Of a stretch of DNA of 50,952 nucleotides, positions 828 to 30,198 are shown one piece after another. Position 1 is the stretch's first letter; each line of letters opens with the position of its first letter. Source of the DNA: Clostridia bacterium (GTDB lineage Bacteria; Bacillota; Clostridia; Oscillospirales; CAG-272); contig CAADYN010000127.1 in assembly GCA_900753285.1 (NCBI GenBank), positions 1 through 50,952 of the forward strand, read 5' to 3'. The notes beneath the pieces were generated by a model, which saw only the letters and a list, made by a program, of their open reading frames with translations, was not told the origin of the DNA and did no database searches. The position numbers and the translations under genes were made by a program.

Positions 828-905
828 TGCGGTTTGCATATTTGTATTGCTGATTTCTGGGAAGTATAATAGGTGTAGATTTATAGAATATCGGAGGTGA
901 AAGGT

Positions 906-1235
906 GTGCTTGATAATTTCAGATTTGAAACCTTTGTTGATGTGCATAGCAACATCTTTGCTGAATATCTAAGCTCCGTTATCGCAAAGCTGCCCAAAGA
1001 AAATCCAGAATACCGTTCCACAGAGGAAAGGATAGAGGAACTCTACAAGGAGTATCCCAAAGTGATGGCAGTTTTGGATACGGAAAAGCCGAGTGATTTA
1101 TCCGAGCAGGAGTGTAAGGCTTTGATAGAAGTTTTGGAGCTTCGGAACAGGCTCAGCGATATGCAGCAGGAAGCAATCTATTTCAGAGGGTGCTATGACA
1201 GCGTTGGGTATCTCAAAAAGGCAGGAATTTTATAA
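906..1235 (+). CDS. Small hypothetical ICE protein
   Basis: ORF 897-1235. GGAGG at 893-897 makes the in-frame GTG at 906 the likely start. It is followed by hairpin 1245-1276. No motif recognised. Confidence 0.55.
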   Translation: MLDNFRFETFVDVHSNIFAEYLSSVIAKLPKENPEYRSTEERIEELYKEYPKVMAVLDTEKPSDLSEQECKALIEVLELRNRLSDMQQEAIYFRGCYDSVGYLKKAGIL

Positions 1236-1244
1236 CCGAGAACG

Positions 1245-1276
1245 GCGGCATTGGCGTGGAGCTGATGCCGCTTTTA
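1245..1276 (+). terminator. Rho-independent terminator-like hairpin
   Basis: GCGGCAT (1245-1251) pairs with ATGCCGC (1265-1271), followed by TTTTA. Confidence 0.5.
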
Positions 1277-1347
1277 CATAGCCGCAGAGGTGGAAAAATT
1301 CATAAAAATGTGGTATGATTTTTAAATCAGTAAGGAGGTGACAGTTT

Positions 1348-1935
1348 GTGAGTGTTATCTTTGGAATAAAAGAAAATAACCGTATAATTATTGCAGGCGA
1401 TAAGCGAGGGTCAAGTATTGACGGGAAAACTTTGTCAGATGATTTAGACAAAGTCCTTATGATAAATGACCATTTAGCTTTTTCAAGTGCAGGTAACGCA
1501 GCTATTGAAAAGGCTATTTCAATAGATTTGAACAAGGCGACAAATAAAGATTGCCTAACTACCGATGATTTACTTGATATTATAAAAGCATTTTATAAGC
1601 GAGTAGCCGATACAAATTGTGATGCTATATTAGCCTTGCCGTTCTATTTTCTCATAGCAGGTAAAGGGCGTGACGGTAATGCAAGCCTAATATCGGGAGG
1701 TAATATCAAGGGTCGTTTAGATGCAAAAGATGTTCCAATGGCTCTTTTTCCACCTGCCGATGCAAAAATGCAGGAGTGCTGCGATTGCTTTGCAAAAAAT
1801 TATAAGTTGCATAATTCAGAGTTTGTAGAAAAAACAATTAAGGAAATTGCGAATATTAGTAATTTGGTAAGCCCTACGGGTAACAAATGGATTTATAATA
1901 TCGCAACAGAAAAAGGGATGCTTTTTTCATTCTAA
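1348..1935 (+). CDS. HslV / 20S proteasome beta-subunit-like Ntn hydrolase (orphan cargo gene)
   Basis: GTG start 8 nt after TAAGGAGGTG. The N-terminus SVIFGIKENNRIIIAGDKRGSS...DKVLMINDHLAFSSAGNAA parallels HslV TTIVSVRRNGHVVIAGDGQ...AGFAGGTADA and PrcB TTIVALKYPGGVVMAGDRR (both recalled from memory). Ser1, Asp17 and Lys34 of the Met-less protein sit at the Thr1/Asp17/Lys33 positions. Confidence 0.6.
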   Translation: MSVIFGIKENNRIIIAGDKRGSSIDGKTLSDDLDKVLMINDHLAFSSAGNAAIEKAISIDLNKATNKDCLTTDDLLDIIKAFYKRVADTNCDAILALPFYFLIAGKGRDGNASLISGGNIKGRLDAKDVPMALFPPADAKMQECCDCFAKNYKLHNSEFVEKTIKEIANISNLVSPTGNKWIYNIATEKGMLFSF

Positions 1936-1954
1936 AAGAACTATATTTTACATA

Positions 1955-1995
1955 GCCGAGAGGTTTTCATTTAACGAAATCCCCTCGGCTTTTTC
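1955..1995 (+). terminator. Rho-independent terminator
   Basis: GCCGAGAGG (1955-1963) pairs with CCCCTCGGC (1981-1989), followed by TTTTT. Confidence 0.7.
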
Positions 1996-2019
1996 TATTT
2001 CTGGAGGTGATTTTATCCA

Positions 2020-3006
2020 TTGAGAACTAACCGACCCTACGTGCAGATTGACCCAGATGTGCTTGAACGGGTACGCCAGATTGACCTGTTATCCTATCTG
2101 CGTGAGTTTGAGCCGAGCAATCTCGTTAAGGTCAAAGGCACAAGCAATGTGTACTGTACAGCAGAACACGACAGCTTAAAGATTTCCAACGGCAAATGGT
2201 ATTGGTGGTCGAGAGGTTTCGGCGGCTATTCTGCCCTCGATTATCTTATCAAGGTCAAGGAATATGACTTTGTGGAAGCCGTGGAAATTCTCACAGGGCA
2301 GACAATGGCGGACTGGAAACCGCCTGCTCCAAAGAAAAATGAACCGAAAGTCCTACTCTTGCCGCTAAAGAATAAGGATTGTAACCGAGTGATACAGTAT
2401 CTTTTCGGGCGTGGTATTGACTATCAGCTCATACAGGAGTGTATCTCAGACGGCACGCTTTATGAGAGTGCCGATTATCACAATGCTGTTTTTATCGGCA
2501 AAGATGAAAGCGGAACACCGAAATATGCTGCCCTGCGAGGCACTCTCGGCAGCACTTTCAAGCAGGACGCATCGGGCAGCGACAAGCAGTATTCGTTCCG
2601 ACTTCTGGCAAAGAAGCCTGCGGATACCGTGCATTTATTTGAAGCCGCCATTGATTTACTGTCCTACGCCACCTATCTAAAGTGTGAGGGAAAGGACTAT
2701 AAATCGGAAAATCTGCTTTCTTTATCGGGCGTGTATCAGCCAAAGAAAGAGATGAAGGACAGCAAAATCCCCATAGCTCTCACAACTTTTTTGAGTGCCA
2801 ATCCACAAATTAAGACCATAGTTCTGCATCTGGATAATGATAAGGTAGGCAGGCTTTGTACCGCTACTTTGAAGGAACTGTTGCAGAAAGACTACAAAAT
2901 CGTTGATGATCCTCCGCCTGTCGGCAAGGACTTCAACGATTTTTTGTTGTCCTATCTGAAAATTGCAAGACCAAAGCTTAAGCGTGAAAGGAGTGATGTC
3001 CGTTGA
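2020..3006 (+). CDS. DUF3991/Toprim domain protein (TraC-like primase-related ICE protein)
   Basis: TTG start after GGAGGTGA. Zinc-binding-like N-terminus, then a Toprim-like segment (VHLFEAAIDLLSY ... IVLHLDNDKVGR). This is a typical ICE neighbour of the relaxase module. Confidence 0.7.
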   Translation: MRTNRPYVQIDPDVLERVRQIDLLSYLREFEPSNLVKVKGTSNVYCTAEHDSLKISNGKWYWWSRGFGGYSALDYLIKVKEYDFVEAVEILTGQTMADWKPPAPKKNEPKVLLLPLKNKDCNRVIQYLFGRGIDYQLIQECISDGTLYESADYHNAVFIGKDESGTPKYAALRGTLGSTFKQDASGSDKQYSFRLLAKKPADTVHLFEAAIDLLSYATYLKCEGKDYKSENLLSLSGVYQPKKEMKDSKIPIALTTFLSANPQIKTIVLHLDNDKVGRLCTATLKELLQKDYKIVDDPPPVGKDFNDFLLSYLKIARPKLKRERSDVR

Positions 3007-3384: not shown

Positions 3385-3435
3385 CAAGCACTGAATTTGG
3401 TTAGCCAAATTCGCTTGTTAGGGGTCAGCCCCTAA
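3385..3435 (+). promoter_or_regulatory. Candidate oriT: two adjacent inverted repeats upstream of mobC and the relaxase
   Basis: IR1 is 3385-3417 (GAATTTGG/CCAAATTC core, extended by CAAGC/GCTTG). IR2 is 3418-3435 (TTAGGGG-TCAG-CCCCTAA). The position matches where oriT usually lies. Confidence 0.3.
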
Positions 3436-3465
3436 TACCCCGTGAGAACAGAAAGGAGTTTAAAA

Positions 3466-3618
3466 ATGAGTGAGTTCTTATTTTTCATTATTGGCACAAT
3501 GCTCGGCGGTCTGTTCGGTGTTGCGTGTATGTGTTGCTTGCAGATAAGCAGACTTTCCGAGAGAAAGGAAGTGGACAATGCGAAAAAGAAATGTGCAGAT
3601 ACTTTTCCGTCTGACTGA
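3466..3618 (+). CDS. Small membrane protein (DUF3789-like), 50 aa, not in the ORF track
   Basis: ATG 3466 lies 8 nt after AAAGGAG. MSEFLFFIIGTMLGGLFGVACMCCLQISRL... has one TM helix and overlaps the mobC start by 41 nt. It resembles small proteins seen before mobC in related ICEs (from memory). Confidence 0.45.
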   Translation: MSEFLFFIIGTMLGGLFGVACMCCLQISRLSERKEVDNAKKKCADTFPSD

Positions 3619-3907
3619 GGAGGAAGCCGAACACCTTAATGAGCTTGTGCGGAAATCGGGTCGCTCAAAAGAAGCCTTTTTAAGAGAAATGGTAAGGGGC
3701 TATCAGCTCTGCGAAAAGCCCGACCCAGAGTTCTATAAAATGATGCGTGAGCTGTCCGCCATTGGCAACCGTATCAATCAGCTTGCGGTTAAGGCAAACG
3801 CCCTCGGCTTTGTGGATACCCCGATGCTCCGTGAGGAAGCAAGGAAATGGCACGAGTTTCAGATTGACATTCGCAAAAGGTATCTGCTTCCACGCAGGTC
3901 ATCGTAA
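3578..3907 (+). CDS. mobC: MobC-family relaxosome accessory protein (RHH)
   Basis: The segments FRLTEEEAEHLNELVRKSG and GNRINQLAVKAN are typical of MobC. The stop overlaps the relaxase ATG. Confidence 0.8.
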   Translation: MRKRNVQILFRLTEEEAEHLNELVRKSGRSKEAFLREMVRGYQLCEKPDPEFYKMMRELSAIGNRINQLAVKANALGFVDTPMLREEARKWHEFQIDIRKRYLLPRRSS

Positions 3908-5313
3908 TGGCGGTCTGCGAGATATGGAATGTGCGTGGCAGGCTCGACCATCCAATCGACTATGCCGAAAATCCCGAAAAGACCGCCAACCCCAAATACA
4001 CCGAAGACGACCTGCAGGCGATGGTCGATGTAATGGAGTACGCTACTAATAAGGATAAGACCGAGCAGCGTTTCTTTGTCACAGGTGTAAATTGTGACCC
4101 GACCACCGCCAGAGATGAAATGATGATTACCAAAGCGGGATGGAGCGACACGAGTGAGATTGTCTGCTATCACGGCTTCCAGAGCTTCAAGCACGGTGAG
4201 GTTACGCCAGAGCAGGCTCACGAGGTCGGCGTTAAACTTGCCGAGCGAATGTGGGGCGACAGATTTCAAGTCATCGTTGCCACTCACCTAAATACCGATT
4301 GCCTGCATAATCACTTTGTCGTGAACTCTGTTTCTTTTGCGGACGGTATGCACTACCACGACAACAAAGCAAATCTGCGGCTGCTCCGTCAGCGTTCCGA
4401 TGAGCTTTGCCGTGAGTATGCTCTGTCTGTCATCGAACACCCAAGCGGTAAGAAAAAGCCCTACGCCCTTTACCAAGCCGAAAAGCAGGGGCGACCCACG
4501 AGGGATAATGTTGCCAGACAGGCGGTGGATGAAGCTATCAGCAAATCATTTACGCTGAAAGACTTTGACCGCCAGTTGGCAGAAATGGGCTATCGCATAA
4601 ACTTTGACCCCAACCGCAAGTATTGGACGATTATAGGCAAGGGCTGGCAAAGACCCAAGCGGCTTTATAAGCTCGGAGAGGAATACACCAATGACAGGAT
4701 TATGGAGCGTATCAGCGAAAATTCCTATGCTGTCAAATTCCAGAGCTTCTCAGAGCCACAGGTCAAGGTCTATCGGGTCAAAGGCTCATTGAAGAATGCC
4801 AGGAAAATCGGCGGCTTGCGTGGGCTGTATCTCCATTACTGCTACAAGCTCGGTATCCTGCCAAAAGGCAGAAAACAAAATTATGCACGGCTTCATTATC
4901 TCTTAAAGGACGACCTTATGAAGATGGAAGCCATCACACAGGAAACAAGGCTGCTTTGCCGCAATCACATTGATACGGCGGAGCAGCTTTGTTCATATAA
5001 AGGCTCTCTGGAAACGGAGATGTCTGCCCTGCTTCAGAAGCGAAAGGAGCTTTACTCCAAATCCCGCAGGACAAGCGGCGAAGAAAAGGAAGCGGTCAAG
5101 GCAGAGCTTTCCGATATTTCGGGGCGGCTGAAAATTATCCGAAAGGAGGTCAGACTGTGCGAGGGCATCGCCGCCCGTAGTGATACCCTCAAGGAAAAAT
5201 TGCAGACGATACGGGCAGACGAACACGAACAGCAAAGAAAGGAGCTGATGAAGAATGAACACAGGCGGCGAAGCGGCAGAACAAATCGTCCGAATGAGCT
5301 TGGAGGGCTTTGA
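3907..5313 (+). CDS. Relaxase/mobilisation nuclease (MobA/VirD2 family)
   Basis: Histidine triad HLNTDCLHNHFVVNSV, an N-terminal relaxase fold and a C-terminal coiled coil. Confidence 0.9.
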   Translation: MAVCEIWNVRGRLDHPIDYAENPEKTANPKYTEDDLQAMVDVMEYATNKDKTEQRFFVTGVNCDPTTARDEMMITKAGWSDTSEIVCYHGFQSFKHGEVTPEQAHEVGVKLAERMWGDRFQVIVATHLNTDCLHNHFVVNSVSFADGMHYHDNKANLRLLRQRSDELCREYALSVIEHPSGKKKPYALYQAEKQGRPTRDNVARQAVDEAISKSFTLKDFDRQLAEMGYRINFDPNRKYWTIIGKGWQRPKRLYKLGEEYTNDRIMERISENSYAVKFQSFSEPQVKVYRVKGSLKNARKIGGLRGLYLHYCYKLGILPKGRKQNYARLHYLLKDDLMKMEAITQETRLLCRNHIDTAEQLCSYKGSLETEMSALLQKRKELYSKSRRTSGEEKEAVKAELSDISGRLKIIRKEVRLCEGIAARSDTLKEKLQTIRADEHEQQRKELMKNEHRRRSGRTNRPNELGGL

Positions 5314-18831: not shown

Positions 18832-20223
18832 TTATTGCCTGTCACAGGGGATAGAAGCTGTTATCTTCATTTTCTGTTCGGCAACAGCTAAACTTCTATG
18901 CAAAGGGATTGCCATAAATACTGTAATAAGTGCAGAGAGAACATCGGCAATCGGCTGTGCATATAAAATACCGTTTAATCCCCATATAAATGGAAAAATT
19001 AAGATAACGGGAATGAAGCAGATACCTTGTCGGCAAGCTCCAAGAATAAACCCTTCTTTTCCTTTTCCAAGAGCAAGGAATAAAGAGGAATATACCGTGT
19101 AGTATCCAAACAGCATAAATGTAATACCGTTTACTCTTAAAGAGGAAGCTCCAATGTGAATCATTTCTGTGTTTCCAGTTGTAAACTGTGAAACAATGGT
19201 CGTAGAAAACAGACTGAATAATAAACCTACGATCACACAAAAAATAGTTGACCATAAGATGGAAATTTTGATTGCAGTACGCAGACGATCAAATTTTTTC
19301 GCCCCATAACTGTAACCTGCAATCGGTTGAAAACCTTTGATAAAACCAAATACTGTTAAGCTGCCCATAGATATAAGACGGGTAACAACGCCCATTCCCG
19401 CTATGGCTGAATCGCCGTAATTACCAGCGGCATTGTTTATTAGAGAGATAGAAATACTTGTTAATAATTGAAATACAAGTGTCGGAACGCCAATTTTGAA
19501 AATTTCAGATAGAATTTCTTTAGAAAAGGTACAGTCCTTTATTCTAAACTGAAAAGCACTTTTTTGTCTGAAAATATAAAACAGATACACAAGAGTAGAT
19601 ACTACCTGAGAAATTGCTGTGGCAATAGCAGCTCCTGCAACACCAAAATTAAAAGTGTATATAAATAATGGATCTAACCCGATATTGAGGACTGCACCTA
19701 ACAACAAGGCACACATTGTAGTTTTTGCTGCTCCTTCACTTGTCACGATATTGTTCATTGTGACATTAAAAACATTGAAAATGCAAGAAACAATGTAAAT
19801 ACCGGCATAGGTAGCCGCATAAGGAAGGACACTTTCTGTTGCACCTAAAAGTCTTAGAATGGGGTTCAAAAAGAGGATTGATAAAACAATCATAATTGCA
19901 CCGACAACAAGACTGCTATATAGTGCAGTGCTTGCCACTTTGTTTGCCTGATCCTTATTTCTTTGTCCTAACAGTCGAGAAATGTAGGATGCTGCCCCAT
20001 TGCCAAAAAGTAATCCTAAGCCGACGACTACTTGACCGAGAGGATACACAACCGAGATGGCAGCCATTTGACTTTCGCCTAAGCCACCTACAAAATAGGC
20101 ATCAACAAGATTGTACAAGGCGTTGATGAGCATACCAATCATTGTTGGAATACCCATAGCTAAAAGGGCTTTTGGAATTGGAGCATTGCCCAATAACTCC
20201 AATTTTCTGTTTTGATTGTCCAT
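18832..20223 (-). CDS. MATE-family efflux transporter
   Basis: 12-TM profile with LGNAPIPKALLAMGIPTMIGMLINALYNLVDAYFVG near the N-terminus. ATG 20223 was chosen because GAAAGGAGAAAG precedes it. Confidence 0.85.
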   Translation of the reverse strand: MDNQNRKLELLGNAPIPKALLAMGIPTMIGMLINALYNLVDAYFVGGLGESQMAAISVVYPLGQVVVGLGLLFGNGAASYISRLLGQRNKDQANKVASTALYSSLVVGAIMIVLSILFLNPILRLLGATESVLPYAATYAGIYIVSCIFNVFNVTMNNIVTSEGAAKTTMCALLLGAVLNIGLDPLFIYTFNFGVAGAAIATAISQVVSTLVYLFYIFRQKSAFQFRIKDCTFSKEILSEIFKIGVPTLVFQLLTSISISLINNAAGNYGDSAIAGMGVVTRLISMGSLTVFGFIKGFQPIAGYSYGAKKFDRLRTAIKISILWSTIFCVIVGLLFSLFSTTIVSQFTTGNTEMIHIGASSLRVNGITFMLFGYYTVYSSLFLALGKGKEGFILGACRQGICFIPVILIFPFIWGLNGILYAQPIADVLSALITVFMAIPLHRSLAVAEQKMKITASIPCDRQ

Positions 20224-20268
20224 AGTGTTCTTTCTCCTTTCACTTGACAAATAGAATAAAATATACTA

Positions 20269-20322
20269 CTATAAATTATAGCAGTTGAAACGCAAGTGGT
20301 ATTCTACTATAATTTATAGTAG
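20269..20322. promoter_or_regulatory. Two related palindromes (candidate PadR operators) in the divergent MATE/PadR promoter region
   Basis: CTATAAATTATAG at 20269-20281 and the perfect 19-mer CTACTATAATTTATAGTAG at 20304-20322. Confidence 0.5.
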
Positions 20323-20351
20323 TTGTCAAGAGAGTAAAGGAGGAAATTGAT

Positions 20352-20882
20352 ATGGCGACCATTGACTTAATTGTTTTGGGAATGTTAAAGAAAGAACCTC
20401 TGAGTGCGTATGACCTTCAAAAGTTGGTAGAGTACCGCAATATTTCAAAATGGGTAAAAATTAGTACCCCGTCTATTTATAAAAAGGTTATCCAGTTGGA
20501 GGAAAAAGGATATATTTCAAGTCATATAGAAAAAGAGGGTAAAATGCCAGAAAAATCAGTGTATTCTTTAACTGAAAAAGGGAAACAGCAGTTTGAAAAA
20601 TTGATGCTTGAAATATCCTGTAAGCCGATAAACATTTTTTTGGATTTTAATGCTGTCATTGTAAATCTGGACAGTATGTCCAGAGAAAGACAGCAAGAAT
20701 GTCTGGATAATATTGAGAGCAGTATGGAGGTATTGAAAAAATATCTGGAAGAAAATATTGCTTTGAAAAAGAGTAAAGAAGATATTCCTGTTACGGGTAT
20801 GGCAGTTTTACGGCAACAATACACATTGGCAGAGGCAATAGAGGAGTGGATTGCTTCATTAAAAAAAGAAATCAATTCGTAA
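20352..20882 (+). CDS. PadR-family transcriptional regulator
   Basis: LIVLGMLKKEPLSAYDLQKLV...SIYKKVIQLEEKGYI is a winged-HTH PadR N-terminus. Confidence 0.85.
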   Translation: MATIDLIVLGMLKKEPLSAYDLQKLVEYRNISKWVKISTPSIYKKVIQLEEKGYISSHIEKEGKMPEKSVYSLTEKGKQQFEKLMLEISCKPINIFLDFNAVIVNLDSMSRERQQECLDNIESSMEVLKKYLEENIALKKSKEDIPVTGMAVLRQQYTLAEAIEEWIASLKKEINS

Positions 20883-20927
20883 AAGTGCATGGTAGGAACA
20901 AAAGAAATGCTGTTATTTTTTAGTTTG

Positions 20928-20946
20928 GATTGTAATGAGATTGTAA
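20928..20946 (+). promoter_or_regulatory. Direct repeat GATTGTAA-N3-GATTGTAA (candidate response-regulator box) just upstream of a -10 TATACT (20958-20963)
   Basis: The 11 nt periodicity is typical of OmpR-family sites. No good -35 is present, which fits an activator-dependent promoter. Confidence 0.4.
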
Positions 20947-21002
20947 GAAGTGGTTGCTATACTGAATTTACAAAATAAAAACAGAAATTTGGAGGTTTTA
21001 AT

Positions 21003-21689
21003 ATGGCAATACTTGAAACAAAAGATTTACGAAAGATATACGGAAGCGGAGAAAACGAAGTCCATGCTTTGGATGGGGTATCCATTTCCGTAGAGGAAGG
21101 CGAATTTGTTGCTGTTATCGGTACATCGGGCAGCGGTAAATCTACACTACTCAACATGATTGGTGGGTTAGACCGTCCTACTTCTGGTAGTGTTACTATC
21201 CGAGGAAAAGAACTGTTGAAAATGAAAGACGAGGAACTGACGATTTTTAGGCGTCGAAACATTGGCTTTGTTTTTCAGAATTATAATCTGCTTCCTGTTC
21301 TTAATGTGTATGAGAACATTGTGTACCCTATTGAGATCGATGGTGGCAAGACCGATACAAGATTTGTAAAAGAGATTATCCATACTCTTGGCTTGGAACA
21401 AAAGCTTAAGAATATGCCGAATAATCTTTCAGGTGGTCAGCAGCAGAGGGTTGCGATTGCCCGTGCCCTTGCGACAAAGCCTGCCATTATCCTTGCCGAT
21501 GAGCCGACTGGAAATTTGGACTCAAAAACAAGTATGGATGTTATTTTGCTGATGCAGTCGATTAGCCGTCAGTTCCACCAAACCACCATTATGATCACGC
21601 ACAATGAGGAAATCGCTCAAATGGCAGACCGCACAATCCGCATTGAGGATGGCAAGGTTGTTTCGGGAGGTGTCAGATATGCACGCTAA
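21003..21689 (+). CDS. ABC transporter ATP-binding protein (MacB/BceA-like)
   Basis: Walker A GTSGSGKST, signature LSGGQQQRVAIARA and Walker B ILADEPTGNLD. Confidence 0.9.
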   Translation: MAILETKDLRKIYGSGENEVHALDGVSISVEEGEFVAVIGTSGSGKSTLLNMIGGLDRPTSGSVTIRGKELLKMKDEELTIFRRRNIGFVFQNYNLLPVLNVYENIVYPIEIDGGKTDTRFVKEIIHTLGLEQKLKNMPNNLSGGQQQRVAIARALATKPAIILADEPTGNLDSKTSMDVILLMQSISRQFHQTTIMITHNEEIAQMADRTIRIEDGKVVSGGVRYAR

Positions 21690-24240
21690 CCGAAATAAAA
21701 AAGCAGTTAAGCGAGTAGAAAAGGGAATGATGAAAGCAAACCGTATTCGTAACCTGTTTGCGGTGTTTGCGATCGTTCTCACTACATTTATGATTACTAC
21801 CGTGTTTAGTTTGGGCATTAACTATATGGAAAATATGAAGTTAATGCAGGTGCGTACCGCAGGCACGACCGCTAATGCTTCCCTTGCGATGCCGACAGAA
21901 AAGCAGGAACAGCAGATTAAGAATTTGGAATATGTTAAAACCGTCGGTACGCAGTATATGGTCGGCTCGGTTGCCGAGAAGAACGATGAGGGGCGTGATC
22001 TTTCTATCGCACTTTCGTATTACGACACTACTGAATGGGATAAACACTATAAAGAAACAATCAAAGATATAGAAGGGAAATATCCCTCAAATGAAAATGA
22101 AATTATGCTGTCAAAGGATGCTCTTTCACAGCTTGGAATGAAAGAGCCGAAGCTGAATATGGAAATCCCTCTGTCCTATTATGATAAAAACGGTCAGCAG
22201 GAAAAAAATTTCACTTTAAGCGGATGGTTTCATTCCTATACAGGCACGGGAATGGGCTTTGTTTCCGAAGCGTATTGCAAAAATGCAGGCTATACAATGG
22301 CAGAGGACGGCGTTCTTTCTTTGTCGTTGAATAAAATGCCTGATGATTTTTATCGTATTCAAAAAGATGTGGAGCTTAACGAAAATCAATCTTTCGGCGG
22401 TGCGGTTTCCATGAAATCATCAAGCGGTTCAGTGATTGCAATGGTAATCCTATTGGTATTCTTTATTATTGGCAGCGGGTATCTCCTTATTTACAATGTT
22501 TTGTATATATCCATTTCAAATGATACCCGTTTTTACGGTTTGATGAAAACGCTTGGAACAACGCAAAAACAGATTAAATCACTGGTAAAAAATCAGGCAG
22601 TTAAGTTTGCTTGCATTGGTATCCCGATTGGTATTTTGTTAGCCACCGCTGTTTCCTTTGGAATTGTTCCATTTGTGTTGAACGAGGGTTTTGAACAGGG
22701 CAAGTCGATGATGGATGCCGAAGTGTTTTTCCATCCATCTATCTATATTTTGTCCGTAATCTTTTCAGCAGTAACCGTTTGGATTGCCTGCAATGCTCCT
22801 GCAAAAGCGGCTGCAAAAATTTCGCCAATAGAAGCATTGAAGTTTCAGAATTTTGCACCGAAGAAAACAAAAAGCAGAAATTCCACCAATGGTGGCAAGC
22901 TGCATGTGATGGCATTTCATAATGTATTCCGTGACAAAAAGCGTGCTGCCCTTGTGTTTATGTCCTTGTTTATGGGAATTACTATGATTTTAGGCGTAAA
23001 TGGGGTTATAAGCAGTATGTCGGCTGAGAACTTTATTAAGGAATATATGGACTATAACTTTGAATACACTGATATTCAGTTTGAGCAGTATGAACAGCTC
23101 AATAAAGAAGTACCGCAGTTTGACGAACACTTTGTAGAACATATCAAGCAGCTTGACGGTATTAAAAATATAGATGTTCAAAAAACAGTCTGGGCAGGTA
23201 TTGACTTTAATGAAAACGATTTAGAAGGCTTTATGAAAATCAAATATGAGGACAGCAAATATAAAGCAAAGGGGCAGTCCTATGAACAGACGATAGAAAC
23301 ACTGAAAGGGTACGCTGAATCTGGTGACTATGGCTGCTATATTACAACGCTTCCAGACGACAGGGTACTGGAAGAATACAATGCAGAGCATCCTGATACG
23401 CCTATTGACATGGAAGCATTTAAGCGTGGCGAAACAGCGATTGCAGGAAAAGATACCGAATATAACGCTCCTAATACCGCTTTAGTGGGTGAAACATTGA
23501 CACTAACTGCCGACAGTACAGACGGCAAGGCAACTGATTTCAAAATTGGCGGAGCTTTTTACTATGACGATTATGATAATACTCTTTCAGAAGGTATTGG
23601 CAGACGCAAAGAAATAAATATGGTGCCAGATGTTATCTTTGTCAGCGAAGCGGGTATGGAACGCCTGACAAAAGAACCAATAATTTCCGCAATCGGCGTT
23701 GACATTAAGAATTTCAACGATTTAGAGCGAATTGACAGCGAATTACAGGCGATCAACAGTACCTTGACCACATCGGAGTGGCAGCTGAAATTTTCCGTGA
23801 ATCAGAAAGAACTATATAACCAGATGAACTACTCTTTGAGCTTGCTGGGAAACGGTGCTGCAATTCTGCTCATTGTCATCGGCTTGATTAACTTTGTAAA
23901 TGTTATGTTGACGGGTGTGGTGGCAAGGAAAAATGAATTTGCCATTATGGAAAGTATCGGAACAACGAAAAAGCAGATCAGGAAGATATTGACCTTAGAA
24001 GGCGGTATTTATGCTCTGATTTCTACTCTGCTGATTATGACTTTTGGTAATGCGTTCCTAATGTTGGTGGCAGATGCAGTTCCGCATATGGCAAACTATG
24101 CAGTATTTAAATACCCTGTTGCACTTGTCATCGGTTTGATCGCAGCAATCTTTGTAATTTGCTTAAGCGTTCCTGCCATTGTTTACAAGGCAACTTCTGA
24201 TGAAACGGTCATTGAAAGACTGCACAATTTTGATAGTTAA
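21679..24240 (+). CDS. FtsX-family ABC permease (BceB-like, two FtsX modules, about 853 aa)
   Basis: The ATG overlaps the ATPase stop. TM clusters lie around 21.75, 22.45-22.8 and 23.85-24.2 kb, with large loops between them. Confidence 0.8.
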   Translation: MHANRNKKAVKRVEKGMMKANRIRNLFAVFAIVLTTFMITTVFSLGINYMENMKLMQVRTAGTTANASLAMPTEKQEQQIKNLEYVKTVGTQYMVGSVAEKNDEGRDLSIALSYYDTTEWDKHYKETIKDIEGKYPSNENEIMLSKDALSQLGMKEPKLNMEIPLSYYDKNGQQEKNFTLSGWFHSYTGTGMGFVSEAYCKNAGYTMAEDGVLSLSLNKMPDDFYRIQKDVELNENQSFGGAVSMKSSSGSVIAMVILLVFFIIGSGYLLIYNVLYISISNDTRFYGLMKTLGTTQKQIKSLVKNQAVKFACIGIPIGILLATAVSFGIVPFVLNEGFEQGKSMMDAEVFFHPSIYILSVIFSAVTVWIACNAPAKAAAKISPIEALKFQNFAPKKTKSRNSTNGGKLHVMAFHNVFRDKKRAALVFMSLFMGITMILGVNGVISSMSAENFIKEYMDYNFEYTDIQFEQYEQLNKEVPQFDEHFVEHIKQLDGIKNIDVQKTVWAGIDFNENDLEGFMKIKYEDSKYKAKGQSYEQTIETLKGYAESGDYGCYITTLPDDRVLEEYNAEHPDTPIDMEAFKRGETAIAGKDTEYNAPNTALVGETLTLTADSTDGKATDFKIGGAFYYDDYDNTLSEGIGRRKEINMVPDVIFVSEAGMERLTKEPIISAIGVDIKNFNDLERIDSELQAINSTLTTSEWQLKFSVNQKELYNQMNYSLSLLGNGAAILLIVIGLINFVNVMLTGVVARKNEFAIMESIGTTKKQIRKILTLEGGIYALISTLLIMTFGNAFLMLVADAVPHMANYAVFKYPVALVIGLIAAIFVICLSVPAIVYKATSDETVIERLHNFDS

Positions 24241-24322
24241 ATGAGGTTGTGGGACGGACGCAGCATTGCTGCGTCTGTTCCTGCAATTTTGTATATTGAG
24301 AAAGGTGGTGCGTTTTGCGGCT

Positions 24323-24988
24323 ATGGCAAATATTTTTCTACTTGAAGATGACAGAATTCTGAGCAAGGGTATTTCTATCGCCCTAAAAAAAGACGAGCAT
24401 ATGGTCACAGCAGTCTATGGGTATTTGGAAGCATTGAAGCAATACCAAAAACAAAAGTATGATTTGTTTCTGCTTGATATTAACCTGCCTGACGGCAATG
24501 GTTTGGAATTTTGTGAAAAAATTCGTGAAACATCGGAAACACCCGTATTATTTCTAACTGCTAATGATACGGAAGAAGATATGTTGGAAGGGTTTGGCGT
24601 GGGTTGTGATGATTATATATCAAAGCCTTTTTCTATCGAAGTTTTACGGAAAAAAGTATTGGCAGTTCTAAAACGAAGTGGCGTAGGAAAATTTCGTATG
24701 AAATACAGAGATTTAGAGTTAGATAAAGAAAAGTGTCTTGTTTTGATGAAGGGACAGGAAATACATTTGACCTCAACAGAATACAAATTGCTCCTTTATC
24801 TAATGGAAAACAGGGGAAGGGTTGTTACAAAGGCAATGCTTTTGGAACAGCTTTGGGATATAGATGGAAATTTTGTTGATGATAATACCGTGCGTGTGAA
24901 TATTAAGCGGCTAAGGCAGAAAATGAATGATGAAAAGCAGGAATACATTGTAACAGTTTTTGGCATGGGCTACTCTTTTGGAGAATGA
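24323..24988 (+). CDS. OmpR/PhoB-family response regulator
   Basis: Receiver domain (LLEDD...DLFLLDINLPDGNG) and a winged-helix C-terminus (LTSTEYKLLLYLMEN...VRVNIKRLRQK). Confidence 0.9.
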   Translation: MANIFLLEDDRILSKGISIALKKDEHMVTAVYGYLEALKQYQKQKYDLFLLDINLPDGNGLEFCEKIRETSETPVLFLTANDTEEDMLEGFGVGCDDYISKPFSIEVLRKKVLAVLKRSGVGKFRMKYRDLELDKEKCLVLMKGQEIHLTSTEYKLLLYLMENRGRVVTKAMLLEQLWDIDGNFVDDNTVRVNIKRLRQKMNDEKQEYIVTVFGMGYSFGE

Positions 24989-26007
24989 CGATGAAGCATT
25001 TTGTGATTTATAGAAAACTGATTTTAATTATAGGTACTGCTACGGCGGTGGTATCTGTTGGTGTGTTCTTTTTTATGGAGGACATCCTTTTCCGTACGCT
25101 TTTTATCTCTTTTGCATTTGCATTTTTTTGGGGTCTGTTGTTCCTGCTGGACTTTCTGCACAACCGCTATAATGATAATCTGTTAGAGGAGATTACGCTG
25201 CTCATTGAAGCATTGGTAGAACAGCAGGAACGGACGGTCTTTTCAGAAGCTGAGGATACCCTGACCGCACGGCTGCAGCATCAACTTCTAAAACTCCGCA
25301 ATATTTTAAAGGCACAGAATCAAATGCTGACACAGGAGAAAGAACAGATTAAAACTTTAATCTCCGATATTTCGCATCAAATTAAAACGCCCGTAGCAGC
25401 GGCAAACACCTTTGCACAGTTATTAGGTGATACAGGGTTATCCGATGAGGAGAGAAGGGAATATATTGCCACCTTGCAGATGTCCCTTGAAAAGCTGACT
25501 TTTTTGACAAACAGTTTGATTAAAATGTCCCGTTTGGAAAGTGGCATTATCCGATTAAAACCTGAACAAAGCAGTTTAAATGATATTGTTATGCAAGCGG
25601 TAAAAACGGTTTATGCCAAAGCAAGGGATAAAAATATTACGATTACCTTTGATTGTGGGCAGACCTTTGAAGCCCTGCTTGATTTTAACTGGACGGCAGA
25701 AGCTGTTACCAATGTACTTGACAATGCTGTGAAATATACACCAAGCGGAGGAGTTGTGGACTTGAAAATCACCGAATATCCATCGTATTTGCGATTGGAT
25801 GTATCCGATAACGGAATTGGCATTCCTGAAGAAGAACAGGCAAAAATCTTCGGCAGATTTTACCGTGGAAAGCAGTCAGCAGGAGTTGACGGTGTAGGGA
25901 TCGGTTTATATCTTACCCGTGATATTGTGAATAAGCAGAACGGGTATATCAAGGTGGCATCCGATGAAAAAGGTACGATATTTTCTTTATTCTTGAAAAA
26001 AGTTTAG
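24985..26007 (+). CDS. Sensor histidine kinase, intramembrane-sensing type
   Basis: Two N-terminal TM helices with almost no extracytoplasmic loop, H-box SDISHQIKTP, N box LDNAVKYT and G boxes DNGIGI / GIGLYL. Confidence 0.9.
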   Translation: MTMKHFVIYRKLILIIGTATAVVSVGVFFFMEDILFRTLFISFAFAFFWGLLFLLDFLHNRYNDNLLEEITLLIEALVEQQERTVFSEAEDTLTARLQHQLLKLRNILKAQNQMLTQEKEQIKTLISDISHQIKTPVAAANTFAQLLGDTGLSDEERREYIATLQMSLEKLTFLTNSLIKMSRLESGIIRLKPEQSSLNDIVMQAVKTVYAKARDKNITITFDCGQTFEALLDFNWTAEAVTNVLDNAVKYTPSGGVVDLKITEYPSYLRLDVSDNGIGIPEEEQAKIFGRFYRGKQSAGVDGVGIGLYLTRDIVNKQNGYIKVASDEKGTIFSLFLKKV

Positions 26008-28335: not shown

Positions 28336-28380
28336 TAATCAGTACAATATATTCAGAAAAATGAATTGGAGGTATGCTTA

Positions 28381-30198
28381 ATGAACACAGCAGTAAATGA
28401 ATATAATTACAGATTTAAGCTCACAGATTATTCTCTGTTTGACAGAAACAGAGCCAGAAAAGTTGCTATTTATGGTCGTGTTTCAACAGAACACGAAGCA
28501 CAGTTATCTGCATTGGAAAATCAGTTACAATGGTATGATGACCAAGTAAAATATCATCCGAACTGGACGGTCTGTGAACGATATATTGATGAAGGTATCA
28601 CGGGAACACAGGCAAAAAAACGCCCTGCCTTTTTGAAAATGATTGAAGATGCCAAGCAAGGTAAATTTGATTTAATTGTTACCAGAGAGGTATGCCGTTT
28701 TGCACGAAATGTTGTGGATACCCTTGTTGTTACAAGAGAGTTAAAAGGCATAGGCGTTGAGGTGTTTTTTATCGACGATAATATTTGGACAATGGACGGA
28801 GATGGAGAACTGCGGCTATCTCTTATGGCAACATTGGCACAGGAAGAAAGTCGCAAGACTTCCGAGCGTGTAAAAGCAGGTCAGAAAATCAGCCGTGATA
28901 ATGGTGTTCTCTATGGAAACGGTAATATTTTAGGTTATGACCGTGTTGGAGATACCTATGTTATCAATGAGGAACAGGCAGAAACGGTCAGAATGATATA
29001 TGATTTGTATCTGCAAGGTTATGGCTCGATGAAAATCGCAAAGATTTTGACGGAGCGAAAAAGGAAAACAGCTTCTGGACTTATAAAGTGGAGCGTTTCA
29101 AATATTATGAGAGCGATTAAAAATGCCACTTACAAAGGAACAAAGTGTTACAACAAATCCAGAAGCAATAACTTTTTAGAGCAGAAGCGAATAAACAATC
29201 TTGATATGTCCACTTATGAATATGTTGAGGGTGATTTCCCTTCTATTATTTCTCAAGAGATATGGAATAAAGCACAGGCGATAAGGGAAAGTAGAGTAAA
29301 ACCTGTATGTGTATCGGCAGGGAAAAACACACATAGTAAGCGTGATTCACGAGATATATGGGTCAATAAGCTACGTTGTTCCTGCGGCTCATCATACCGT
29401 AAAAATAAATGGCATACGAAATTGGACGGAAAAACCTCTTACGGTTATCAATGCTACAATCAGCTTAACAACGGAATTAAACGGAAAAGAGCTGAAATCG
29501 GTTTAGATACTGAGGGATATTGTGACAGCAGAATGATAACCGATTGGAAACTCGATTTTATGGCAAAAGCTTTGTTAGAGCATCTCTGGACGGAGAGAAA
29601 AGAGTCTGTACTGATTGCGTTAGACCTTATTAAGTATTATTATAAGGAAGAAAAATCTAACGAAACTCAATCCGATACGGTAACGATACAGGCGAAATTG
29701 GATAAGGCAAATAGCAGACTGACTAACTTGATTGCTATGAGAGCTGATGGAGAGATTTCCAAGGACGAGTATCAAGCAATGAGAAGTCCTGTCGATGAAG
29801 AAATCAAGAAACTTCAAAAAGCACTTGATGAAATTCCACAGGAAAAAAGCAATCCGAAAGGATTGGATATAGAGGGTATCCGTTCCACTCTGAACAGCTT
29901 TATTGATTTTAGTGGTAGCACTATCAGCCACGATGTTGTCAATCAGTTTGTATATCTGATAACACCGACATCGGATACTACATTTGATTGGTATGTTAAT
30001 CTGAATGGGACAGCAGATGTGAAAGCAACCTTTACAGCGGAAGGCAGAAAGAAAAACTGCATTATCAAATTGGAGGAAATCGAAAAGATTTCCTCGGTAC
30101 ATAGGGAAAAGAATGAGGACAATGCTCATTTCATTAAAAACCCCCATATTTTTACCTATCTGCACAGGCTGCCCTCAGATAAGCTCGCGGCAAGCTGA
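28381..30198 (+). CDS. Large serine recombinase (ICE integrase)
   Basis: VAIYGRVSTEHEAQLSALENQ (catalytic Ser), VTREVCRFARN, a recombinase domain, a Cys-rich zinc ribbon (CSCGSSYRKNKW...YQCYNQ) and a coiled-coil C-terminus. ATG follows GGAGG. Confidence 0.9.
   Translation: MNTAVNEYNYRFKLTDYSLFDRNRARKVAIYGRVSTEHEAQLSALENQLQWYDDQVKYHPNWTVCERYIDEGITGTQAKKRPAFLKMIEDAKQGKFDLIVTREVCRFARNVVDTLVVTRELKGIGVEVFFIDDNIWTMDGDGELRLSLMATLAQEESRKTSERVKAGQKISRDNGVLYGNGNILGYDRVGDTYVINEEQAETVRMIYDLYLQGYGSMKIAKILTERKRKTASGLIKWSVSNIMRAIKNATYKGTKCYNKSRSNNFLEQKRINNLDMSTYEYVEGDFPSIISQEIWNKAQAIRESRVKPVCVSAGKNTHSKRDSRDIWVNKLRCSCGSSYRKNKWHTKLDGKTSYGYQCYNQLNNGIKRKRAEIGLDTEGYCDSRMITDWKLDFMAKALLEHLWTERKESVLIALDLIKYYYKEEKSNETQSDTVTIQAKLDKANSRLTNLIAMRADGEISKDEYQAMRSPVDEEIKKLQKALDEIPQEKSNPKGLDIEGIRSTLNSFIDFSGSTISHDVVNQFVYLITPTSDTTFDWYVNLNGTADVKATFTAEGRKKNCIIKLEEIEKISSVHREKNEDNAHFIKNPHIFTYLHRLPSDKLAAS

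Follow-up and report, generated by a model that had tools for sequence, protein, structure and literature searches.

A proteasome-like N-terminal-serine hydrolase carried in an exchangeable cargo slot of integrative and conjugative elements from gut Clostridia

Results

Genes and features of the locus

We analyzed a 50,952-nt stretch of DNA (hereafter the window), contig CAADYN010000127.1 of assembly GCA_900753285.1 from a Clostridia bacterium of the CAG-272 lineage, which contains an integrative and conjugative element (ICE) of gut Clostridia. Between two backbone genes of this ICE lies a short AT-rich segment whose only plausible gene encodes a 195-aa proteasome-like N-terminal-serine hydrolase (PSL) beginning MSVIFG. 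The left backbone gene encodes a DUF6664 protein (Pfam PF20369, E 1.5e-57) and the right one a protein with the Pfam domains DUF3991 and Toprim_2, and the coordinates of all features are listed in Table 1. The interior of the segment (1291-1945) has a GC content of 35.0%, compared with 45.9% in the left flank and 48.5% in the right flank, a drop of about 11-13 points. An earlier description of the window made from the letters alone (hereafter the original prediction) had likewise recognized a single-gene, AT-rich segment between ICE backbone genes. Its hand count of 16 G or C in the 60-nt line at 1801 was off by one (15/60), a trivial difference that leaves the low GC in place. The possibility of a transposase or recombinase encoded inside the cassette was rejected, as PSL is the sole credible open reading frame (ORF).

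The segment is bracketed by two direct repeats, which the original prediction had placed at exactly the right coordinates. The copies share 18/19 nt overall, 13 of them as an exact run, with one additional C in the left copy, and the exact 12-mer of the repeat occurs only at these two sites in the window. A 13-mer direct repeat arose in 37/2000 shuffles of the 1.6-kb region (about 2%), so that the repeat, taken by itself, only suggests an insertion. Each copy overlaps a terminator-like hairpin. The first hairpin (hp1) folds at -25.3 kcal/mol (z -3.2 for RNA folding against shuffled sequence) and was matched by a terminator scan, while the second (hp2) folds at -17.6 kcal/mol (z -3.3), leads through its T-rich tail directly into the ribosome-binding site (RBS) of the Toprim gene and is the predicted terminator of the cargo gene. 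The original prediction that the right repeat is part of a terminator therefore held, since this copy supplies the 5' arm of hp2, whereas the left copy is not free of terminator sequence as had been thought, its TTTT being the U-tract of hp1.

As a separate observation, TTTACA in the right repeat and TTTAAC in the hp2 loop, 17 nt further on, form a weak -35/-10-like pair (1947-1979). Such a pair could start Toprim transcripts inside hp2 and thus bypass the terminator; the Toprim gene would otherwise be reliant on read-through, because hp2 lies only about 30 nt from its start.

Table 1. Coordinates of the cargo slot, its PSL gene and the adjoining backbone genes in the window
Feature	Position	Strand	Evidence
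DUF6664 gene, left backbone flank of cargo slot	897..1235	+	PF20369; directly upstream of slot in 69/69 related loci
hp1, 12-bp stem-loop then TTTT; terminator-like insulator after DUF6664	1244..1272	+	Fold, terminator scan
Left direct repeat TTTTACATAGCCGCAGAGG: hp1 U-tract and orphaned copy of hp2 5' arm	1272..1290	+	Sequence, related loci
Resident slot promoter: -35 TGGAAA, 17-nt spacer, extended -10 TGgTATGAT	1291..1319	+	Promoter scan, cassette alignment
RBS AAGGAGG, 9 nt before GTG start	1332..1338	+	Read from sequence
PSL gene: 195-aa proteasome-like N-terminal-serine hydrolase, no propeptide	1348..1935	+	Pfam, profile, model, Foldseek
Ser2 codon, predicted nucleophile (Ser1) after Met removal	1351..1353	+	MSVI invariant in 24 homologues; aligns with beta2 Thr1 and HslV Thr
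Asp18 codon (proteasome Asp17)	1399..1401	+	Invariant, aligned
Arg20 codon (proteasome Arg19)	1405-1407	+	Invariant, aligned
Lys35 codon (proteasome Lys33)	1450..1452	+	Invariant, aligned
Gly49 codon (oxyanion-hole Gly47)	1492..1494	+	Invariant, aligned
Right direct repeat TTTTACATAGCCGAGAGG: last 10 nt form hp2 5' arm	1946..1963	+	Sequence, related loci
hp2 stem-loop (1954-1990) and T-rich tail TTTTTCTATTT	1954..2001	+	Fold; inverted repeat
DUF3991/Toprim_2 gene, right backbone flank	2020..3006	+	Pfam; 248 relatives in species-representative genomes

The segment is one occupant of a cargo slot

We compared the junctions with those of related elements. The Toprim protein has 248 relatives in species-representative genomes, and 69 of the 80 loci retrieved contained both backbone genes (loci are given L numbers below). 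The interval between the two genes ranged from 110 to 3476 bp among the 69 loci, of which 8 were empty and 61 occupied. The empty sites run without interruption through hp1 (GGCGGCAT...ATGCCGC), a single TTTTACATAGCCGAGAGG, the loop and 3' arm of hp2, TTTTT and the Toprim RBS. The occupied loci contained unrelated DNA of 44 distinct lengths at the same insertion point, with 54 cargo protein clusters, and the cargo was always on the backbone (+) strand. The right junction was near-invariant, with ACATAGCCGAGAGG at no more than one edit in 59/61 occupied loci, followed by hp2. At the left junction hp1, which is kept in empty and occupied sites alike, was followed by TTTTACATAG in all cases; a near-full copy of the left repeat was present in 16/61 occupied loci, and its last 8 nt were degenerate in the remainder, as would be expected of a half without a pairing partner.

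Dozens of related elements have this motif at the corresponding junctions, which settles the question: the segment is an insertion into a terminator flank that duplicates 14-18 nt, as the original prediction had proposed together with the empty-site comparison made here. The contrary explanation, that nothing was inserted and a common terminator motif merely occurs twice, draws on the overlap of the motif with two terminator-like hairpins and on the frequency of 13-mer repeats in shuffled sequence. The empty sites refute it, and we regard it as having next to no chance of being right, given the 8 related ICEs with a single copy and adjoining hairpins, the 61 ICEs with unrelated DNA at the same nucleotide positions, the GC drop and the restriction of the exact 12-mer to the two junctions.

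Directly after the left repeat lies a promoter that reached 9/12 with TG in the promoter scan. Across twelve different cassettes its motifs stand in the same register (-35 T(G/A)GAAA, 17 nt, TGnTATAAT), and sequence similarity among these cassettes stops just past the -10. Because the promoter directly follows the left copy and is shared across cassettes, the slot is best described as a frame that supplies its own promoter and a terminator split in two, and the alignment places the exchangeable unit between a point just past the -10 box and the right repeat. The repeat-bounded cassette of the original prediction was thus correct as an insertion, although the variable unit begins after the resident promoter and not at the left repeat. 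The additional C of the left copy is common to elements with four different cargos and therefore follows the backbone lineage, not the cargo. PSL homologues elsewhere lack the slot repeat and have their own promoters instead, which assigns the repeat to the ICE slot and not to the gene.

The frame reads in the order DUF6664, hp1, repeat, sigma-A-type promoter, variable DNA, repeat, rest of hp2 and Toprim gene, and in the empty slot the two repeat copies merge into one with hp1 and hp2 side by side. The slot of the window holds a single gene that has its own RBS and GTG start and a terminator-like hairpin as insulator at either end. Because recombination between the two repeat copies would restore the empty state exactly, the empty sites could represent either the ancestral or a secondary condition.

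We also considered how cargo might enter the slot. No internal repeat copies were found in multi-gene cargo (3-5 genes) and never more than two copies in a locus; no recombinase or integrase was found in or beside the slot, the only recombinase found in the ICE part being a large serine recombinase 26 kb away. An integron-type cassette or array was rejected on these grounds. An origin of the junctions through a relaxase or an origin of transfer (oriT) was unsupported as well, since the motif occurs only at the two junctions, no slot-like motif is present at the probable oriT (3393-3445) and the hairpins there are unrelated to the slot repeat.

In many related ICEs, mostly from mouse-gut isolates, a further conserved ORF of 115 aa (about 3643-3990) separates hp2 from the Toprim gene, which we regard as backbone variation (L029, L051, L056-L060, L062, L066, L068, L069, L071, L073, L074 and L076); in L059 and L074 this ORF is present and the slot is otherwise empty.

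Other occupants of the slot

When we examined what else the slot carries, clear defence-type domains were found in a minority of the cargo. These occupants included TIR+SIR2 (ThsA-like), AbiTii, HEPN_AbiU2, HD-CE/HATPase_c_3 and PD-T4-6-like kinase proteins, as well as a CAP12/Pycsar-type TIR protein (PADLOC PDC-S35, E 1e-111), a Schlafen AlbA_2 protein (PDC-S50) and a Trypsin_2 protein (PDC-S45). Non-defence occupants included PhzF, GNAT, OmdA and GCAxxG proteins, and many others were unannotated. These results indicate that the slot holds a mixed bag of cargo with a clear defence component.

Across the slot loci (L021-L100), over half of the single-gene occupants tested had neither a Pfam-defence nor a PADLOC annotation, among them SEC-C proteins of 386-388 aa and proteins of 282-286, 237-240, 305 and 441-464 aa. 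One locus (L004:4421-6892) encodes a DUF6664 protein identical to that of the window, after which an 823-aa HD-CE/iHD-CE/HATPase_c_3 protein replaces PSL and is followed by a 379-aa protein. The upstream backbone of this locus also differs, with a UvrD-like helicase and a methyltransferase.

PSL has a proteasome beta-type fold and a conserved active site

PSL matched the Pfam Proteasome family (PF00227) over its N-terminal 49 residues with 24.5 bits (cut-off 22.4, E 2.4e-5). A profile built from 24 family members matched archaeal proteasome subunits in the PDB, both alpha (8.5e-7) and beta (6e-4). The AlphaFold2 model (pLDDT 95.3, pTM 0.91) has the canonical order of strands and helices with the full S1-S11/H1-H4 core, and it gave 845 Foldseek matches in the PDB at E<=0.001. 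The best 50 of these were all 20S proteasome subunits (probability 1.0, TM 0.66-0.78), and beta subunits wherever the chain is known.

The active site was equally well conserved. In 24 homologues down to 32% identity, M1, S2, V3, I4, G6, D18, R20, D31, K35, G49, G105, P136, C144, V174, S175, G178 and W181 were invariant. S2, D18, R20, K35 and G49 align with beta2 Thr1, Asp17, Arg19, Lys33 and Gly47 in HMMER and hhalign comparisons, and S2, D18 and K35 align with the equivalent HslV residues too, in agreement with the Ser1/Asp17/Lys triad that had been predicted. An MS or MT start and the lack of a propeptide are common to all relatives, remote ones of about 200 aa included, so that exposure of the nucleophile would require Met removal alone. 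We conclude that PSL almost certainly has a proteasome beta-type N-terminal nucleophile (Ntn) hydrolase fold with a conserved catalytic inventory and no extra domain.

HslV identity was rejected: no NCBIfam HslV model matched at E<=1, hhalign against Escherichia coli HslV gave a probability of 26%, and no hslU gene was present. Identity with the bacterial or archaeal 20S proteasome (PrcB) was rejected as well, as the NCBIfam alpha and beta models reached only 12-21 bits against cut-offs of 192-287 (TIGR03690, 12 bits versus 191.9; TIGR03634, 20.9 bits versus 224); the lack of a nearby alpha gene and of a propeptide further ruled out 20S membership. The HslV/PrcB-like hydrolase of the original prediction therefore stands as regards the Ntn fold, which Pfam, AlphaFold2 and Foldseek all bear out, and not as regards membership of either family. 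No gene for an ATPase or alpha-subunit partner was found within 6 kb of PSL in 20 loci, and the original prediction had noted none nearby.

Three remote relatives of 315-337 aa (P0230, P0249 and P0262) have an MT or MS start, keep the Asp and Lys and are extended at the C-terminus by about 120-140 aa. FC4-type proteins, whose C-terminal domains are phage-tail-like (PMC8665760), may be their counterparts.

PSL homologues in mobile elements and BREX operons

The exact PSL sequence, which NCBI names 'MULTISPECIES: proteasome subunit [Bacillota]', is listed in 47,295 blocks of a public assembly collection, and most of those examined were gut metagenomes. For the family as a whole, 1.84 billion cluster representatives yielded 325 at E<=0.001, of which 49 fell below 1e-30. 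By tblastn, PSL was not found on sequenced phages or plasmids. In IMG/VR it was present on only 3 contigs, two of which hold the ICE itself, and PHROGs gave marginal matches only, at 0.009 to an unnamed family and at 0.04 to the 'peptidase HslV family'.

We then inspected 17 other homologues (45-85% identity to PSL) on their contigs and found no conserved partner or metabolic neighbour among their contexts. One (L101) lies in a cluster of genes for DUF4238, Hypoth_Ymh, TIR, SH3, PSL and AAA_15/21 proteins, and others (L102-105) lie on a ParAB/RepA_N element with a pair of AAA_15/21 genes upstream. An 82%-identical copy directly follows a prophage tail and GH25-LysM endolysin module (L144:2722-8588), and another homologue (L114) is placed between two ParB-methylase genes adjoining HNH and terminase genes. 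A 54%-identical group (L158:2793-10022, with about 20 contigs of this kind) is flanked by two large serine recombinase genes, one intact and one disrupted, and adjoins an nSTAND NTPase gene where an integrated element ends; a further homologue (L106) adjoins a small resolvase. The PSL family, small by the counts given above, is confined to mobile elements and islands in these contexts.

A distinct group of homologues was found in complete type 1 BREX operons of three lineages, in each case between brxC and pglX with gaps of 10-18 nt on each side, giving the order BrxA, BrxB, BrxC, PSL-like, PglX, PglZ and BrxL (L118:10001-10585, L119, L120:7001-7582, L121, L122 and L126-L130). One of these lineages is on a Tn7-like (TniB/TniQ) element. 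The BREX-embedded proteins are 51-55% identical to one another, while their BrxC proteins are 67-68% identical, and they share 47-52% identity with the protein of the window (measured for the L118/L119 and L120-L122 types). In a neighbour-joining tree they form one clade, apart from the ICE/prophage clade of the window. Because the diverged BREX copies form a single clade, the association between BREX and PSL appears to be long-standing and not the result of repeated chance insertion. Our literature search found no proteasome homologue in defence islands and none linked with BREX.

The surrounding element

Outside the slot, the gene 5' of DUF6664 is represented by the C-terminus of a giant SNF2/methylase/helicase protein, which has 2587 aa in related loci. 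The Toprim gene is followed by genes for a NikA-like protein, a relaxase, DUF3801, a type IV coupling protein, a VirB4-like ATPase and a lysozyme/CHAP protein, and further 3' by a cargo region with efflux and ABC genes, a large serine recombinase gene (28366-30198) and ordinary chromosomal genes. DUF6664 and Toprim are conserved backbone genes of an ICE family that also bears the NikA-like protein, relaxase, coupling protein, VirB4 and large serine recombinase. The identical PSL protein is found in the same gene order in Roseburia intestinalis (FP929049), Coprococcus aceti and many metagenome assemblies.

Further observations concern parts of the element away from the slot. The second cargo region (18832-26007) encodes an 878-aa FtsX-type ABC permease and, on the minus strand, a MatE efflux protein; the serine recombinase at the ICE end has 610 aa. 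Beyond about 30.4 kb come genes of chromosomal appearance (ABC transporters, TrkA, GH38 mannosidase), and the GC content rises from 43% to 50%. The probable oriT consists of two adjoining perfect hairpins (3393-3440), GAATTTGG/CCAAATTC and TTAGGGG/CCCCTAA, upstream of the NikA-like (3578) and relaxase (3907) genes, with a 58-aa ORF (3442-3618) between. Upstream of DUF6664 in L005, L009, L010 and L017, all that remains of the giant SNF2/methylase gene is a helicase C-terminal fragment of 515-517 aa with Mob_Pre and AAA_25 genes in front of it, which may represent an inserted mobilisable element, and in L006:2557-3720 an IS110-family transposase gene separates the giant gene from DUF6664. A structured RNA in the region was rejected: Rfam returned nothing beyond a sub-threshold match to the dinG RNA at 747-858 (24.3 bits versus a gathering score of 46.9, E 0.31), which covers the helicase gene end and the DUF6664 promoter region and is probably due to chance.

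Discussion

A possible role of PSL

Serine at position 2 makes a protein a good methionine aminopeptidase substrate. In the mechanism that we propose, this enzyme would strip the initiator Met of PSL and expose Ser1, whose hydroxyl would attack a peptide or amide bond, with its own alpha-amine and Lys35 acting as the proton shuttle, Asp18 orienting the lysine and Gly49 forming the oxyanion hole. Removal of Met to expose residue 1 has been shown by mass spectrometry for the bacterial proteasome homologue (BPH), which has no propeptide either (PMC5777263). A serine nucleophile is unusual in this fold, but precedents exist: the HslV protein CodW, one Anbu protein and non-betaproteobacterial BPH all have one (PMC5777263). 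PSL would act without a dedicated AAA+ unfoldase, and it would therefore be either a chamber for peptides and unfolded chains or a sequence-specific enzyme like connectase.

The explanation that we favor, and to which we give about an even chance, is that PSL is a conflict-system protein, most likely one that defends the host or the element against phages or rival mobile DNA and would do so by proteolysis. The defence-type co-occupants of the slot, the BREX-embedded clade, the prophage, TIR and nSTAND contexts and the small size of the family all point in this direction, so that the defence or anti-defence role raised in the original prediction has gained strength from the slot, prophage and BREX contexts, while the role itself is still read from context. 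Several findings weigh on the other side. PSL has no recognisable sensor domain, and no model of PADLOC-DB v2.0.0 matched it at E<=10. Of the single-gene slot occupants, 12/20 had no PADLOC match, and part of the cargo looks metabolic (PhzF, GNAT, OmdA, GCAxxG). The BREX clade is a sister clade and not the one to which the PSL of the window belongs, and phage-like carriage and a place near the probable oriT are what one would equally expect of a gene for anti-defence or establishment. Moreover, Ser1 does not match Thr1 as a nucleophile in proteasomes, and BPH is inert on standard substrates (PMC5777263), so that general proteolysis by PSL cannot be assumed. A bolder version, in which the PSL family would be a new class of immune proteins and the first proteasome-family protease in defence, serving both as a stand-alone one-gene module of ICEs and prophages and as a built-in accessory subunit of a variant BREX, with slot contents exchanged by an undescribed site-specific mechanism at the ACATAG core between the two hairpins, is one that we put forward only tentatively and would sooner expect to fail in some part than to hold throughout.

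Three other roles have to be weighed against a defensive one. PSL could be an anti-defence or establishment factor, encoded in the leading region of the ICE and made early so as to degrade a defence protein or signal of the recipient. The geometry fits, in that the slot is about 1.4 kb upstream of the probable oriT, which directly precedes the NikA-like and relaxase genes, and the giant SNF2/methylase, DUF6664, slot and Toprim genes all face this oriT; anti-defence genes, methylases and single-stranded DNA-binding proteins of leading regions have been reported in that orientation (PMC11541004). The homologue between two ParB-methylase genes near the terminase of a phage-like element fits as well, and a stand-alone mobile copy of a BREX-operon component could serve as a decoy. 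We nevertheless judge this role unlikely, since the genes that take its place in the slot encode effectors typical of defence or abortive infection, with no known anti-defence families among them, the promoter of the slot is of the ordinary double-strand sigma-A type and no Frpo-like single-strand promoter was identified, and the argument presumes that the slot enters first while nic site and transfer direction are only putative. We consider it similarly improbable that PSL is a non-immune accessory peptidase or amidase, active in peptide turnover, unfolded-protein clearance or connectase-like ligation, whose mobile carriage is incidental. ATP-independent clearance has been proposed for unfoldase-less proteasome homologues, and a specific ligase is known in connectase (PMC8665760). 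Proteins that look metabolic (PhzF, GNAT, OmdA) are also found in the slot, and PSL seems well tolerated, its 47,295 sample blocks being what a low-cost gene would show. On the other hand, PSL recurs independently at or in defence loci, including BREX operons of three diverged lineages, and its family keeps to mobile elements and islands, where no metabolic neighbour is conserved.

Far less probable still is a divergent HslV or 20S beta orthologue that uses an unfoldase of the host chromosome (HslU/CodX or another AAA+ protein). CodW, an HslV protein with an N-terminal Ser, does require CodX (PMC5777263), and PSL can be aligned with E. coli HslV over its N-terminal 52 residues. Neither the NCBIfam models nor hhalign supported such membership, as reported above, and the 2021 survey of proteasome homologues found no co-occurring AAA+ partner for any of the new ones (PMC8665760). 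A host-specific partner is unlikely in any case because the element moves between many host genera.

As to what is added here, the sequence had already been named a proteasome subunit, and the class was catalogued in 2021 but left functionally blank (PMC8665760). What appears to be new, from comparative sequence analysis, is the context of PSL, a nucleotide-defined cargo slot with a resident promoter and a recurrent link to mobile defence loci including BREX. A family of partner-less proteasome homologues thereby acquires a genomic context, as insulated and self-expressed cargo of ICEs and prophages and, in one clade, as a conserved member of BREX operons, and its function becomes open to direct experiment. 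Whatever the activity of PSL is, it should be widespread in human gut Clostridia, because public assemblies contain the exact protein in tens of thousands of cases. We know of no restriction mechanism established for BREX, and a conserved extra protease in one BREX variant could inform on it. The slot, with its more than 50 alternative cargo families, also provides a ready list of candidate conflict genes and may serve as a natural plug-in expression site.

Comparison with known systems

Among proteasome-family systems, PSL resembles HslV and CodW (ClpQ) in its Ntn fold, in the Met-Thr or Met-Ser start that they share and in the alignment of its N-terminal 52 residues with HslV, Asp and Lys included, and it differs from them in having no adjacent hslU and no NCBIfam HslV match. 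With BPH it shares a stand-alone gene, the lack of an unfoldase and of a propeptide, and Ser in place of Thr, as in the non-betaproteobacterial subfamilies of BPH. BPH is a member of the HslV-derived group I and assembles into double heptameric rings with a long acidic pore loop. Its gene is chromosomal and constitutively expressed, whereas PSL is mobile-element cargo, is only weakly similar to HslV and has its best structural matches among 20S subunits, presumably beta. Neither BPH nor Anbu was among the best 60 sequence or the best 50 structure matches of PSL in the PDB, and the PSL model stops at S11 with no H5, while Anbu has a long C-terminal helix H5 and a conserved operon. Connectase is likewise a partner-less proteasome homologue, and its existence demonstrates that a protein of this fold can carry out a sequence-specific reaction other than degradation; it is, however, an archaeal protein in which helices H1/H2 are missing and a lid of two helices lies between S3 and S4, whereas the PSL model has a complete core without insertion.

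The closest description is that of Fuchs, Alva & Lupas 2021, who reported 22 new families of proteasome homologues, among them five Firmicute-only clusters, FC1-FC5 (references WP_075525441.1, WP_000217171.1, WP_098409529.1, WP_076223917.1 and WP_106036939.1), with no propeptide, no AAA+ partner and no informative genomic context (PMC8665760). Compared by description, PSL agrees with this 'group II' in its length of about 200 aa, its Firmicute origin, the lack of a propeptide, the Thr1/Ser1-Asp17-Lys33-Gly47 core and a profile that resembles both alpha and beta subunits. It departs from FC1-FC5 as described in that its family has a consistent context, on mobile elements, in the ICE slot and in BREX operons. 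CBL08611.1, an accession of the exact PSL protein, is presumably a deposit of roughly 2010 and, if so, was in the nr database at the time of the survey.

Extra genes between brxC and pglX are known in some type 1 BREX loci, and the BREX clade of PSL resembles such accessory genes in being packed tightly at the brxC-pglX junction. Variable cargo hotspots with defence genes are also known from other mobile elements, hotspot 5 of the SXT ICEs being one. The hotspots of P2 and P4 likewise hold variable mobile-element cargo with defence genes (PMC9122126). The slot described here corresponds to the latter in its fixed place between backbone genes, with an empty state and many occupants at the same backbone position, as found for cargo hotspots, and in its mutually exclusive cargo sets, some of them defence genes, of low GC content. 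It differs from them in the ICE family and host clade (gut Clostridia), in limits that are exact to the nucleotide, set by a duplicated 14-18-nt motif from a split terminator hairpin, and in a resident promoter that would drive any cargo placed behind it.

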